Below are positions 5,179-9,122 of a stretch of 26,095 nt of DNA, one piece after another. How positions within the stretch are numbered: the stretch's first letter is position 1; each line of letters opens with the position of its first letter. Origin of the DNA: a virus (taxonomy: Duplodnaviria > Heunggongvirae > Uroviricota > Caudoviricetes); the IMG/VR virus record IMGVR_UViG_2531839476_000012. One strand, written 5' to 3'. Made by a program: the position numbers and the translations under genes. Below the pieces are notes generated by a model, which saw only the letters and a list, made by a program, of their open reading frames with translations, searched no databases and was not told the origin of the DNA.

Positions 5179-5805
5179 TTAGAGTTCGTATTGAACTCCT
5201 TTGACTACACCAATGATAAGGCAATTACCATTGATAGGGATGTTGGGATACCGAGGATTTAATGGCACTAAAAACTTTTGAGGGCCATCGATGACTAATT
5301 TTTTTACTGTAGCTTCGTTTGTTCCATCAAGTCGAGCGATGACTATTTTTCCATGACGAGGTTCTGCATCTGGATCTACAATCACTGTTGCGCCTTCTGG
5401 TATTGTTGGGAGGCCATTAGGGTTAGTCATGGAGTCACCTTTAACCTCTAATGCAAATGAGTTATCACCAACCTTTAATGATGTATCTACCCACTTGTCC
5501 ACTTCACTAAACACTTCTGCTGCCCTGCACTCAGTAAACTGCCCAGCCTGAACCCACGATATTACAGGAACTCTGCGCATGTTTGTGACGAGTTTGCCTT
5601 CAAACTCAGCACCGTAAAGAATGTAATCTATTGACGTATTGAAGAACTTCGCTAATTTCGAAAGTGCCTCCCCGCCAGGGGTATTGATGTCTTTCTCCCA
5701 GTACCCCACAGCAACGTCGCTTACTCCACAAAATTTACCCAATTCTTTCTGGGACGTTCTGGTAACTCTTCTCAGAGCTTTTATACGCTGACCAACCGTT
5801 TCCAT
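5179..5805 (-). CDS. cI: cI-type prophage repressor (HTH plus LexA-like S24 self-cleaving peptidase domain), 208 aa
   Basis: N-terminal HTH (TSQKELGKFCGVSDVAVGYWE); Ala-Gly cleavage site (VQAGQF); catalytic Ser in GDSM and downstream Lys (ATVKKL); divergent from the cro-like gene. Confidence 0.9.
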   Translation of the reverse strand: METVGQRIKALRRVTRTSQKELGKFCGVSDVAVGYWEKDINTPGGEALSKLAKFFNTSIDYILYGAEFEGKLVTNMRRVPVISWVQAGQFTECRAAEVFSEVDKWVDTSLKVGDNSFALEVKGDSMTNPNGLPTIPEGATVIVDPDAEPRHGKIVIARLDGTNEATVKKLVIDGPQKFLVPLNPRYPNIPINGNCLIIGVVKGVQYEL

Positions 5806-5827
5806 AGGAGCACCATTTCTTTAATCG

Positions 5828-5890
5828 CTAAGTAATCTTAGTTTTTATTGACCAAAGATAGATTTGTAATTAGCATCTAACAAAACTTAG
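5828..5890. promoter_or_regulatory. Immunity switch (oR/pR/pRM): two 14-bp operator palindromes flanking a -35-like TTGACC
   Basis: O1 CTAAGTAATCTTAG (5828-5841); O2 CTAACAAAACTTAG (5877-5890); TTGACC at 5848-5853; GGAGGG RBS for cro at 5894-5899. Confidence 0.6.
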
Positions 5891-5902
5891 TTTGGAGGGC
5901 GT

Positions 5903-6103
5903 ATGACAACTGACGATATCGAAAGCTACTTCGGCAGTATTGAGAAAGTTGCTGCTTTTTTCGGCATAACAACTGAAGCCGTTTATCAGTGGCGAAACCG
6001 TCCGGGCCAGTTAATTCCAAAAGGACGTGCAGCAGAAGCTGCATATAGAACTTGCGGACGGTTGCCATTTAAACCTGAGCTTTATGAAAAATCTAATGGA
6101 TAA
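5903..6103 (+). CDS. cro: Cro-like small DNA-binding regulator, 66 aa
   Basis: Divergent from cI across the operator region; GGAGGG Shine-Dalgarno; small basic protein with an HTH-like segment (ITTEAVYQWRNRPGQ). Confidence 0.75.
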   Translation: MTTDDIESYFGSIEKVAAFFGITTEAVYQWRNRPGQLIPKGRAAEAAYRTCGRLPFKPELYEKSNG

Positions 6104-6692
6104 ATCGATTAACAGAAACCACAGAACGATGAGGCTAACCGTGGGTAAGCATCACTGGAAAGTAGAAAAACAGCCTGAGTGGTACGTGAAAGCTGTCAGA
6201 AAAACTATCGCAAAGTTGCCGGGTGGTTACGCTGAAGCAGCTGACTGGCTGGATGTAACAGAGAACGCATTATTTAACCGCCTTCGTGCCGATGGCGATC
6301 AGATTTTCCCGCTGGGATGGGCAATGATTTTGCAACGTGCTGGTGGAACTCACTTCATTGCTGACGCAGTGGCGCAGTCTGCAAATGGCGTCTTTGTGTC
6401 TCTTCCTGACGTCGAGGATGTGGACAACGCCGATATTAACCAGCGCCTGCTGGAAGTCATTGAACAGATCGGCAGTTATTCAAAACAGATTCGTTCAGCA
6501 ATTGAAGACGGTGTAGTGGAACCGCATGAGAAGACAGCAATTAACGACGAGCTGTACCTCTCAATTTCGAAGCTGCAGGAGCATGCAGCACTGGTCTACA
6601 AAATTTTTTGCATTTCAGAAAGTAATGACGCCCGCGAGTGTGCAGCTCCGGGCGCCGTGGCGTGTCGTGACTGTGGAGAAACTAACGCATGA
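6084..6692 (+). CDS. Hypothetical early regulatory protein in the cII position (about 199-202 aa)
   Basis: ORF directly downstream of cro in the rightward operon. Start is ATG 6084 or ATG 6096, both overlapping the cro 3' end. C-terminal CxxC-like motif (CRDCGETNA). Assignment is by position only. Confidence 0.5.
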
Positions 6693-7027
6693 ACAGTTTA
6701 ACAACACACTACCGTCGCTCGCAACTGATTGCGCTTCCTGTACCGGGTGGAAAAGCGAAGGTGGAGTATTGCTATGCAGTAAATGTACCAGGTGACAGGG
6801 AAATTGTAACCCACAGCTTTGCAGAGTGGGCTGTGGGTGATTTCAACCGGCAGAAGGAGACAGTCCTTTGCGACAAGTTAACCGCTGGTTCAAAGATCAC
6901 TACGGAGTGCCCGTCAGAGTCATTCGTTGGGAGCCGGAAACACAACGTGTTATCTACCTCCGCGAAGGCTATGAGCATGAGTGCTTCAGCCCGCTCGAAC
7001 AGTTTCGTCGTAAATTCAGGGAAATAG
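6689..7027 (+). CDS. Hypothetical protein, 112 aa, with a suspect low-complexity C-terminal half (possible frameshifted gene)
   Basis: ATGA start/stop overlap with the upstream gene. The second half is Ser-rich, while an alternative frame over the same DNA reads a more protein-like sequence (see 6868-7047). Confidence 0.35.
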
Positions 7028-7047
7028 AGGTCGGTCATGAGCACTAA
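6868..7047 (+). CDS. Candidate small ORF (59 aa, TTG start) or displaced C-terminus of the preceding gene
   Basis: Perfect AAGGAG Shine-Dalgarno at 6854-6859, 8 nt before TTG 6868. Translation [59 protein letters not shown], ending TAA 7045-7047. Below the ORF-track size cutoff. Confidence 0.35.
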
Positions 7048-7978
7048 ATTAACCGGCTATGTATGGGATGGTTGCGCTGCATCAGGCATGAAATTATCCA
7101 GCGTGGCAATTATGGCCCGCCTGGCTGATTTCAGTAATGACGAAGGTGTGTGCTGGCCATCAATTGAAACCATTGCCCGCCAGATTGGCGCGGGGATGAG
7201 TACCGTCAGAACGGCTATCGCACGGCTGGAAGCAGAAGGCTGGTTAACGCGTAGGGCGCGTCGCCAGGGTAACCGCAATGCGTCGAATGTTTATCAGCTT
7301 AACGTTGCGAAGCTTCAGGCAGCGGCATTTTCTCAACTGTCAGATTCTGACCCGTCAAAATCTGACGCATCAAAATCTGACCCGTCAAAATTTGATGCGT
7401 CGAAATCTGGCAAAAAAGCGGGTTTTCACCCGTCAGAATCTGGTGGGGATCCGTCAGTAAAATCAAAACATGATCCGTCAGATAAAAAAACTTCTCGTCC
7501 GGACGCTTCGCAACCGGACACGCAGACGGCTGAACAGGATTTTTTAACTCGCCATCCTGATGCGGTTGTATTCAGCCCTAAAAAGCGCCAGTGGGGGACG
7601 CAGGATGATTTGACCTGCGCACAGTGGCTCTGGAAAAAAATCATCGCCCTGTACGAGCATGCCGCCGAATGTGACGGCGAGGTGGTTCGTCCCAAAGAAC
7701 CGAACTGGACAGCCTGGGCAAACGAAATTCGCCTGATGTGTGTGCAGGATGGTCGTACTCATAAACAAATCTGCGAGATGTACAGCCGCGTCAGTCGCGA
7801 TCCGTTCTGGTGCCGTAACGTGCTCAGCCCGTCGAAGCTGCGGGAAAAATGGGATGAGCTTTCCCTGCGCTTATCGCCGTCCGTCAGCACGTACACCGAA
7901 AAACGCGAAGACCCGTACTTCAAAGCCAGTTACGACAACGTGGACTACAGCCAGATCCCGGCAGGATTCAGGGGGTGA
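7037..7978 (+). CDS. Replication initiator (O-like; N-terminal winged-helix DNA-binding domain, SD(P/A)SK repeat linker, C-terminal domain), 313 aa
   Basis: N-terminal HTH region (SVAIMARLADFSNDEGVCWPSIETIARQIGAGMSTVRTAIARLEAEGWL); internal tandem 15-bp iterons encode SDPSKSDASKSDPSKFDASKS; position after the cII-like gene mirrors lambda O with its internal ori. Confidence 0.7.
   Translation: MSTKLTGYVWDGCAASGMKLSSVAIMARLADFSNDEGVCWPSIETIARQIGAGMSTVRTAIARLEAEGWLTRRARRQGNRNASNVYQLNVAKLQAAAFSQLSDSDPSKSDASKSDPSKFDASKSGKKAGFHPSESGGDPSVKSKHDPSDKKTSRPDASQPDTQTAEQDFLTRHPDAVVFSPKKRQWGTQDDLTCAQWLWKKIIALYEHAAECDGEVVRPKEPNWTAWANEIRLMCVQDGRTHKQICEMYSRVSRDPFWCRNVLSPSKLREKWDELSLRLSPSVSTYTEKREDPYFKASYDNVDYSQIPAGFRG
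7346..7490. repeat. Putative replication origin: 15-bp tandem iterons with internal dyad CGTCA-N5-TGACG, followed by an A-rich tract
   Basis: TCTGACCCGTCAAAA / TCTGACGCATCAAAA / TCTGACCCGTCAAAA / TTTGATGCGTCGAAA in tandem (7346-7405), further CCGTCAG-containing copies to about 7480, then GATAAAAAAA (7481-7490). Confidence 0.65.
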
Positions 7979-7980
7979 TC

Positions 7981-8469
7981 ATGAGTCTTTTGAATGACGT
8001 TCAGAAATTCATTGAAGCCCATCCGGGGTGTACTTCCGGAGACATTGCGGATGCTTTTGCAGGTTACTCACGACAGCGCGTTCTGCAGTCAGCAAGCAAG
8101 TTACGTCAGAGTGGGCGTGTGGCTCACCGTTGTGAAGGGGATACACGCAGACATTTCCCGCGGCTGACTGAGATACCGCAGGAGCCGGAACCGCAACCAG
8201 TTCGTGAATCCAGACCTGTGCGCAATTTCTATGTCGGCACTAACGATCCCCGGGTGATTTTGTGCCTGACCCGCCAGGCGGAAGAACTGGAGTCCAGGGG
8301 CTTATACCGTCGTGCTGCAACGGTGTGGATGGCGGCATTCCGTGAAAGCCACTCCCAGCAAGAGCGAAACAATTTTCTTGCGCGTCGTGAGCGGTGTTTA
8401 CGGAAAAGCAGCAAGCGCGCTGCATCGGGTGAAGAGTGGTATCTGTCAGGGAATTACGTGGGGGCTTAA
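7981..8469 (+). CDS. Hypothetical protein with a PerC/ANR-like C-terminal motif, 162 aa
   Basis: ATG 7981 with a GGGGG Shine-Dalgarno; C-terminal segment (ELESRGLYRRAATVWMAAFRESHSQQERNNFLARRERCL) recalled as resembling PerC/ANR-family regulators. Confidence 0.5.
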   Translation: MSLLNDVQKFIEAHPGCTSGDIADAFAGYSRQRVLQSASKLRQSGRVAHRCEGDTRRHFPRLTEIPQEPEPQPVRESRPVRNFYVGTNDPRVILCLTRQAEELESRGLYRRAATVWMAAFRESHSQQERNNFLARRERCLRKSSKRAASGEEWYLSGNYVGA

Positions 8470-9122
8470 TGAGTAATAAATATTGCCAGGCGCTGGTGGA
8501 GCTGCGGAACAAACCAGCCCATGAACTGAAGGAAGTGGGCGATCAGTGGCGCACGCCGGACAACATTTTCTGGGGAATTAACACCCTGTTTGGCCCGTTT
8601 GTTCTGGATCTGTTTACTGATGGTGATAACGCCAAATGCGCCGCGTATTACACTGCGGAAGACAACGCGCTGGCGCATGACTGGTCAGAACGTCTTGCGG
8701 AGCTTAAAGGTGCTGCCTTTGGTAATCCCCCGTACAGCCGCGCCAGTCAGCATGAGGGGCAATACATCACCGGCATGCGTTACATCATGAAGCATGCCAG
8801 TGCCATGCGTGATAAAGGCGGGCGCTATGTTTTCCTGATCAAAGCTGCCACCAGCGAAGTTTGGTGGCCGGAAGATGCAGACCATATTGCTTTTATTCGC
8901 GGGCGTATTGGTTTTGAACTGCCAGCCTGGTTTATCCCGAAGGACGAGAAGCAGGTGCCGACAGGCGCTTTCTTCGCTGGTGCTATTGCTGTTTTCGACA
9001 AGACCCGGAAGGGACCGGCAATCAGCTACATCGGGCGCGATGAACTTGAGGCATGTGGTGAGGCCTTTCTGGCGCAGGTTCGCCAGCAGGCGGAAAAACT
9101 GGTCAGGGAGATGGCGGCATGA
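8469..9122 (+). CDS. Phage orphan DNA N6-adenine methyltransferase, 217 aa
   Basis: Catalytic NPPY motif (AFGNPPYSR); TAATG overlap with the upstream stop; no adjacent restriction endonuclease gene. Confidence 0.8.
   Translation: MSNKYCQALVELRNKPAHELKEVGDQWRTPDNIFWGINTLFGPFVLDLFTDGDNAKCAAYYTAEDNALAHDWSERLAELKGAAFGNPPYSRASQHEGQYITGMRYIMKHASAMRDKGGRYVFLIKAATSEVWWPEDADHIAFIRGRIGFELPAWFIPKDEKQVPTGAFFAGAIAVFDKTRKGPAISYIGRDELEACGEAFLAQVRQQAEKLVREMAA

Follow-up and report, generated by a model that had tools for sequence, protein, structure and literature searches.

Evidence for a maintained out-of-frame overlap between ymfM and a DUF4222 gene in the early region of an e14-like prophage

Introduction

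When two reading frames stand open over the same DNA, is one of them the debris of a broken gene, or are both of them genes? The question arises at positions 6689-7047 of IMG/VR record IMGVR_UViG_2531839476_000012, a 26,095-nucleotide stretch of DNA from a virus of the Caudoviricetes that is referred to here, at its full length, as the window. An open reading frame (ORF) of 112 amino acids (aa), ymfM, runs from ATG 6689 to TAG 7025-7027, and its second half is rich in serine, with 12 Ser among the 52 residues from 61 to 112. The +2 frame, equivalently the -1 frame relative to ymfM, is open over 6841-7047, between TGA 6838-6840 and TAA 7045-7047. It carries a perfect AAGGAG Shine-Dalgarno (SD) sequence at 6854-6859, 8 nucleotides (nt) before an in-frame TTG at 6868-6870. 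A first-pass annotation, made from the letters alone, had described all of these features correctly and offered two explanations: a 1-bp indel that had broken up what was once one gene of about 115 aa, or a small TTG-initiated gene that ORF calling had missed. The doubly open stretch measures 187 nt (6841-7027), and the actual overlap between the two genes measures 160 nt (6868-7027).

That annotation did not weigh the case in which both frames are real and the overlap between them is itself conserved. We consider it probable that ymfM and the second frame, which encodes a DUF4222 protein, are two genuine genes of an e14-like lambdoid early-right operon with a conserved 160-nt out-of-frame overlap, in which the tail of ymfM would deliver ribosomes to the replication gene downstream. 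Both genes are already catalogued. The new elements are the evidence for maintenance of the overlap, a likely explanation of that maintenance, and the doubt over whether the phenotype ascribed to ymfM is its own.

The two genes of the overlap

The ymfM ORF (6689..7027, plus strand) corresponds to b1148 of the e14 element of E. coli K-12, annotated as 'cell division inhibitor YmfM' and reported to be SfiC, a division inhibitor induced by the SOS response. The window and K-12 proteins are identical at 109 of 112 residues, the match to phrog_1170 spans the full length (E=4.6e-70), and the order of genes (cI-like, cro, ymfL, ymfM, O-like) is the same as in K-12. The 112-aa frame has no match in Pfam or NCBIfam. 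It divides into a conserved N-terminal domain of about 55-59 aa, here called Y-N (6689..6865, plus strand), and a Ser-rich tail of residues 60-112 (6866..7024, plus strand) that is read in the +1 frame of the DUF4222 gene.

The DUF4222 gene itself (6868..7047, plus strand) encodes 59 aa from a TTG start, with its SD at 6854..6859 on the same strand, and belongs to phrog_1343. Its product matches Pfam PF13973 (E=8.6e-19) with a score of 67.3 bits, where the gathering threshold is 27, and the alignment takes in profile positions 3-52 of 53. It is a small stand-alone protein with its own start signal, and its length lies within the range of about 55-75 aa set for membership of the family. The start codon is ATG in nearly all relatives and TTG in the e14 group, and relatives also have a purine-rich, SD-like sequence upstream. 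Searches of NCBIfam and PADLOC return no match for either frame. The suspected TTG gene is therefore real, as its Pfam match and its conserved SD and start indicate, although it has not been generally missed, since the Prokaryotic Genome Annotation Pipeline (PGAP) annotates it as WP_001250269.1.

The constrained frame

Several lines of evidence identify the frame that is under amino-acid constraint. In tblastn searches against Klebsiella phages of about 75% nucleotide identity, DUF4222 is 88% identical over 100% of its length, and YmfM is 57% identical over 79%, that is, over its first 88 residues. Pairwise Nei-Gojobori (NG86) estimates of omega, the ratio of nonsynonymous to synonymous divergence, across five lineages give 0.03-0.19 for DUF4222, where synonymous divergence (dS) is saturated at 1-2, like that of the non-overlapped N-terminus of the O gene. 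The same estimates give 0.17-0.56 for Y-N and an apparent 0.9-11 for the YmfM tail when it is read in the ymfM frame. By this measure, no amino-acid-level purifying selection on the ymfM frame is seen inside the overlap, and Y-N is the sole part of ymfM with such selection.

Closely related sequences show the same polarity. The window and K-12 differ at five sites: the two in Y-N are both third positions of ymfM codons, and the three in the overlap all fall at the third position of DUF4222 codons, the second of ymfM codons. In a set of 29 closely related haplotypes, DUF4222 third positions account for 11 of the 15 variable overlap sites. These haplotypes come from a viral-contig scan with a Y-N alignment, which recovers near-identical loci only; they serve for polymorphism counts, and the Y-N counts are biased by that selection.

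Structure predictions agree. An AlphaFold 2 (AF2) model folds DUF4222 into a five-stranded beta-barrel followed by a short helix, with a predicted local distance difference test (pLDDT) score of 82. In the AF2 model of YmfM, Y-N reaches pLDDT 58-74 with a beta-beta-beta-alpha pattern, and residues 68-112 fall below 50; the tail is accordingly predicted to be disordered. A Foldseek structure search with DUF4222 yields only generic small-barrel matches of the SH3, KOW, Tudor and DUF1653 kinds (E >= 0.005), and a sequence search of the PDB yields no match. Because of its identity, its omega values, its third-position polymorphism and its confident fold, DUF4222 is the amino-acid-constrained frame, and the Ser-rich tail is its out-of-frame shadow. 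The first-pass annotation had set the two frames against each other and asked which of them homologues conserve. In homologues the 112-aa frame does stay open to its end, but the alternative frame, far from lacking conservation, is the more strongly conserved of the two.

Two separate coding units

The idea that one ancestral gene of about 115 aa was broken by a 1-bp indel near 6845-6860, leaving the two frames as its halves, predicts that the halves belong together elsewhere. A few database proteins of 102-152 aa (P0030, P0052, P0059, P0065 and P0090) do fuse a YmfM N-terminus to DUF4222 in a single frame. These fusions each have a different junction and few members, as would fit sporadic frameshift errors or mutations, and the unfused 112-aa form is far commoner, with thousands of members (1295 in P0007 alone) and a locus carried by 2647 E. 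coli genomes.

Phage genomes show each part standing by itself. In tblastn searches with the long ORF, residues 1-52 match Citrobacter phage phiNP, residues 4-56 match Hafnia phage yong2 and residues 1-75 match a Providencia phage. The Y-N homologues in these three are stand-alone genes of 59-65 aa placed directly after a cII-like gene; with those of Yersinia phages included, stand-alone homologues span 53-65 aa. Hafnia phage yong2 and Providencia phage PSTRCR_117lys carry Y-N alone, with a stop that overlaps the start of the gene after it. A Rha gene separates Y-N from DUF4222 in Citrobacter phage phiNP, where DUF4222 stands alone just ahead of the replication gene. The Y-N of Yersinia phage YeP2 is 53 aa long and stops on the DUF4222 start codon, as ATGA. 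Serratia phage BZS1, EKP1 and CharmingMan have DUF4222 alone before the replication gene. PHROGs holds a separate 63-aa family for Y-N (phrog_20047), and a search of a representative library with Y-N finds a small family of 56 clusters whose members measure about 59-77 or 111-117 aa.

The stand-alone forms of both parts and the varied fusion junctions therefore lead us to reject the indel, which we regard as extremely improbable. The SD and start codon that DUF4222 conserves for itself, and an arrangement that is stable down to 44% identity in the DUF4222 core, also speak against it.

A programmed -1 ribosomal frameshift could in principle join Y-N to DUF4222 and make the fusion a physiological product. 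Frameshifting is common in phage genes, and the DUF4222 frame is indeed the -1 frame of ymfM. Yet an X XXY YYZ slippery heptamer is absent throughout the ymfM frame (6689-7027), a TGA closes the DUF4222 frame just 9 codons upstream of its start, and the gene has a conserved SD and start of its own. The hairpin at that start is marginal (z = -1.94) and unconserved in relatives, so that no conserved stimulatory structure is present. We hold such a frameshift to be very improbable, and treat ymfM and DUF4222 as two separate genes.

The hairpin deserves a comment of its own. In the window it spans 6854-6870, where AAGGAG pairs with UCCUUU, including the first two bases of the TTG, in a 6-bp stem with a 5-nt loop. 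As a general mechanism, an RNA hairpin at the DUF4222 start is rejected, because it is absent in relatives with an ATG start. In this lineage, sequestration of the SD could tie DUF4222 initiation to ribosomes that are translating ymfM.

A full-library phmmer search with Y-N gives, in addition, weak matches of residues about 14-52, in multiple stretches, to Flg_new (Listeria-Bacteroides) and DUF7507 repeat proteins (P0213, P0230, P0231 and P0245). These may be compositional or beta-repeat noise, or they may hint at a beta-rich fold of Y-N.

The ymfM frame is kept open

If the tail is unconstrained in its amino acids, its frame should decay, and it does not. Across 34 species-representative genomes with DUF4222 and related phages, the +1 frame of DUF4222 is stop-free from an upstream Y-N-type domain to DUF4222 codon 52-55, and the loci with this open frame include at least three divergent Y-N sequence types. 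In the same genomes and phages, the +2 frame always has stops, 3-10 of them. Openness was counted over 103 distinct DUF4222 cores of 43 codons each. The +1 frame is stop-free in 55 of the 55 cores that are preceded by a contiguous in-frame Y-N, down to 44% core identity to the window. The other 48 cores contain one to four stops in 26 cases and are open in 22.

Codon choice in DUF4222 follows the needs of the other frame. Where an NTN codon precedes a codon starting with A or G, its third base is a purine in 0 of 320 instances; before codons starting with C or T, the count is 60 of 222. Leucine at an at-risk column is written only as CTT or CTC, and before a C-starting codon it is CTG in 25 of 40 sequences. 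Covarying pairs point the same way: GTA and GTG occur only ahead of CGN or CAG, ATA occurs only ahead of CGC, and the codon ahead of an AGR or AAA neighbour is always GTC or ATC. On a neighbour-joining tree, the three columns that are always at risk show 17 inferred third-base changes, every one an exchange between T and C, and most third-base changes at safe columns involve purines. Synonymous resampling with local codon usage leaves the frame open in a median of 7% of trials per sequence.

These internal controls point to selection, and not to inheritance or composition, as the cause of the openness. Selection is found in both frames beyond what the constraint on the other frame would impose, and the comparisons show a tail that is free in sequence yet, to judge from codon choice, actively kept free of stops. 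A reading frame that is held open with a fixed end while its amino acids drift suggests that what is selected is translation itself, for example as a way to bring ribosomes to the replication gene, and not the peptide. This pattern is also a caution for methods that judge coding status from amino-acid conservation alone.

The +1 frame is stop-free, too, in a separate DUF4222 subfamily (YTDWRGVQVHVIRWDR...) from IMG/VR contigs with DUF4222 at 1201-1380 (L154-L170). There it reaches 65-116 codons upstream and ends 16-31 codons beyond the core, and no Y-N domain was detected in it. Read-through may have arisen here a second time, independently, or the open frame may reflect composition.

The end of the frame and the replication gene

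The stop of the ymfM frame is formed by a rare NTA codon of DUF4222 (ATA, TTA, GTA or CTA; 34 of 37 sequences) together with the A or G that follows. This bears on the view that only DUF4222 functions in the overlap and that the ymfM tail is a neutral accident without consequence. Such a view is compatible with an unconstrained tail that is predicted to be disordered, and with stand-alone Y-N proteins (53-65 aa) which show that the domain needs no tail; an open ancestor, given the median 7% chance per sequence, would moreover be inherited. But linked cores are open without exception and unlinked ones in fewer than half of the cases, purine-ending codons are missing exactly where they would create stops and are common elsewhere in the DUF4222 gene, and compensatory codon pairs are present. 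Synonymous sites of DUF4222 are saturated, so drift should have introduced stops, and the rare NTA codons sit exactly where the frame ends. A neutral tail is, in our estimate, quite improbable.

The gene just downstream is an O-like replication initiator of the HTH_36 type (7037..7978, plus strand; Pfam PF13730, E=4.2e-11), labelled 'DNA replication protein O' or 'primosomal protein' in related phages. The ymfM TAG (7025-7027) shares one base with the SD of this gene, GAGG at 7027-7030 (together 7025..7030, plus strand), lies 12 nt 5' of its ATG and is in the same frame as that gene (TAGAGG). The replication-gene ATG lies 8 nt ahead of the DUF4222 stop. In 50 of 52 linked loci, the ymfM stop falls -12 to +8 nt from the downstream replication ATG, and this placement holds over at least six unrelated replication-protein N-termini and two frame arrangements. 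In the frame-swapped DUF4222 subfamily, it is the DUF4222 stop that overlaps the ATG, with the ymfM stop 8 nt beyond. The position of the DUF4222 stop relative to the replication ATG ranges from -2 to +89 nt.

A comparable junction lies at the other end of ymfM. The upstream gene ymfL (6141..6692, plus strand; PGAP annotation transfer) encodes a CII/CP76-like regulator (Pfam PF06892, E=1.7e-13), and its TGA stop (6690-6692) shares bases with the ymfM ATG (6689-6691) as ATGA. A stop close to a downstream start or SD, the mark of a coupled junction, is thus found at both ends of ymfM, and at the replication gene this placement is conserved.

These features fit a simple scheme. Ribosomes would begin on ymfL-ymfM and cross the DUF4222 gene by way of the ymfM tail, which would be a read-through extension, an overprint that forms a bridge across DUF4222. 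They would then terminate at the ribosome-binding site of the replication gene and so couple that gene to the upstream cistrons; this delivery would be the chief task of the tail. Stand-alone Y-N genes would reach the same coupling through the ATGA overlap with the next gene. Taken together, the ATGA at ymfL-ymfM, the ATGA of stand-alone Y-N genes and the placement of the ymfM stop suggest selection for the delivery of ribosomes to the replication start; we infer the coupling role of the tail from where its stop is placed.

Another explanation is that the tail is a functional part of YmfM, a disordered Ser/Thr-rich segment that serves division inhibition, turnover or localisation and is constrained in length and composition. 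Its length is nearly constant (52-55 codons), its frame is protected from stops, and filamentation was shown with a fragment carrying the full-length 112-aa ORF. The amino acids of the tail, however, evolve as fast as the synonymous sites of DUF4222 permit, and its composition is dictated by DUF4222 codons. Tail-less Y-N homologues persist in other phages, and the stop tracks the replication ATG even where frame relations differ. We regard this explanation as possible but somewhat unlikely; it is compatible with a coupling role, and both could hold.

Several points weigh against two genuine genes with a ribosome-delivering tail. The DUF4222 stop also lies beside the replication ATG in many loci, where DUF4222 alone could provide the coupling. 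We infer translation of both frames from conservation only, and a tail function set by length or composition, not by sequence, would leave the same signatures. The raw Fisher p-values for the open frame (2e-23 and 2e-11) come from sequences that are kin, so their significance is overstated, and the parsimony and covariation counts are small; the separate lines of evidence nevertheless concur. Finally, in relatives from SfV, ST64B and Stx phages the ymfM frame lacks this stop and continues into an Ash/Rha ORF, a continuation that is explained neither by coupling nor by length and composition. Even with these points counted, two genuine overlapping genes with a tail that would hand ribosomes on to replication is the reading we favour.

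The long ORFs themselves are found in ST64B (sb41; L123:1658-2815), SfV (orf37; L124:1652-2488) and a Stx2a phage (L125), where the ymfM-frame ORF runs into an Ash domain (PF10554). The ST64B and Stx2a phage ORFs also contain a Rha domain (PF09669), and the annotated proteins measure 278-385 aa. An intact DUF4222 frame, about 63% identical to that of the window, lies unannotated inside these ORFs. The ORFs may be genuine fusions, or they may be artefacts of gene calling that hide an internal GTG or ATG start.

The start of the replication gene has a further peculiarity. The sequence around it (window 7020-7047, with equivalents in L009-L042; …GGACGACCATGAGC… or …GAGGTCGGTCATGAGC…) hardly varies. 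The replication proteins that begin after it are of at least six unrelated types, and all start with Met-Ser apart from a single Met-Asn variant (L013). The constant stretch has the look of a fixed joint at which early-region modules recombine.

Annotation and the SfiC phenotype

The same DNA is present in 2647 of 5426 complete E. coli genomes, and its annotation is contradictory. At the E. coli locus, PGAP calls 'ymfL | DUF4222 domain-containing protein | helix-turn-helix protein'; in strain A15, for example, WP_001250269.1 maps exactly to window 6868-7047, and the equivalent of 6693-6867 carries no annotation. The curated K-12 MG1655 record has ymfM (b1148) only, without a DUF4222 coding sequence (CDS), and this CDS is also absent from several phage records. 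None of the records examined has both genes together. The K-12 record thus gives ymfM only, PGAP gives DUF4222 only, and some phage records give neither or an antisense ORF; both genes merit annotation.

The antisense case is Klebsiella phage ST101-KPC2phi6.3 (MK416017.1; L004:1335-1622), where a hypothetical protein is called on the opposite strand across DUF4222 and both ymfM and DUF4222 are uncalled. Its equivalent in the window is a 90-aa ORF at 6772-7044 on the minus strand. The antisense call is probably an error to which doubly coding DNA, poor in stops, gave rise.

The overlap also affects what is known of SfiC. Expression of the ymfM ORF from pBAD24 is described as producing filaments without Z rings, and deletion of ymfM as lowering SOS filamentation in a sulA background (Ansari et al., bioRxiv 10.1101/2020.11.19.390815). 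The original library clone consisted of ymfL(142-185), ymfM and ymfN(1-92). The effect is reported there to be independent of MinC, SlmA and SulA, and later papers reuse the same ymfM deletion. The text of that preprint, its supplementary primer tables aside, treats ymfM as one 112-aa product and contains neither a frame-specific mutation nor a reference to an embedded DUF4222 gene. A literature search turned up no paper that connects ymfM with either DUF4222 or ribosome profiling.

The ymfM ORF contains the DUF4222 SD, its TTG start and its codons 1-53, that is, the whole Pfam domain, and the ymfM deletion takes out most of DUF4222. Clone and deletion both affect DUF4222, and therefore the described constructs leave it unsettled whether the SfiC product is Y-N, the tail or DUF4222. 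The SfiC literature is confounded to this extent, since the gain-of-function clone and the deletion both hit a second, strongly conserved gene. It is unlikely, though worth serious thought, that SfiC is wholly or partly the embedded 59-aa DUF4222 protein. If so, DUF4222 would gain its first function: a small beta-barrel, encoded beside the replication initiator in many temperate phages, would block assembly of the host Z ring.

Neighbouring features

The overlap lies in window 5179-9100, where a lambdoid, e14-like prophage has its immunity and early-right genes. A LexA-family cI-like repressor is encoded at 5179-5805 on the minus strand, and cro occupies 5903-6103. The longest ymfL ORF starts at GTG 6027 and would overlap cro by 77 nt; the equivalent of the PGAP start is 6141. 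Within the O-like gene, iteron-like 15-bp repeats (7346..7409, no strand assigned; 4.3 copies) mark a probable replication origin. The repeat unit (TCTGACCCGTCAAAA), present in four-plus copies, encodes a SDPSKSDASKSDPSK stretch and resembles the iterons of lambdoid origins. An Rfam scan of 5800-8000 gave a sub-threshold miRNA model on these iterons as its sole hit, and a promoter and terminator scan found nothing on the plus strand within 6689-7047.

Comparison with known systems

The closest counterpart is e14 ymfM (b1148), which is the same ORF in the same place, after ymfL and before the O-like gene. The K-12 e14 element has a chimeric ymfN in that last position, whereas the window prophage has an intact-looking O-like gene. 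DUF4222 in BZS1, YeP2, EKP1 and CharmingMan adjoins and overlaps the downstream replication initiator as it does in the window. The more distant members of the family have no second-frame read-through; in the window and most enterobacterial relatives, the upstream gene reads through DUF4222.

Kil of lambda and Rac and DicB of Qin are likewise small proteins from prophage early regions whose expression blocks the formation of Z rings. Searches of Pfam, PHROGs and NCBIfam show no sequence or family relationship between them and either Y-N or DUF4222.

Termination beside a downstream start couples translation, and overlapping stops and starts such as ATGA occur in bacterial and phage operons. The ATGA at ymfL-ymfM, the ymfM stop at the replication SD and the DUF4222 stop 8 nt past the ATG all resemble such coupled operons. 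The difference, if coupling is the reason, is that about 52 codons of frame are kept across another gene, and we know of no described precedent for a frame of that length being kept in this way.

Overprinted genes are familiar from phages, as in lambda Rz/Rz1 and in phiX174, where B lies within A and E within D. Like these pairs, the locus described here has DNA shared by two frames, in this case an older, well-folded DUF4222 and a younger YmfM tail that is biased in composition and predicted to be disordered. It differs from them in that the younger reading is a C-terminal extension of an existing gene, not a separate gene, and in that the tail bears signs of selection on its openness and on the position of its stop only, not on its amino acids.

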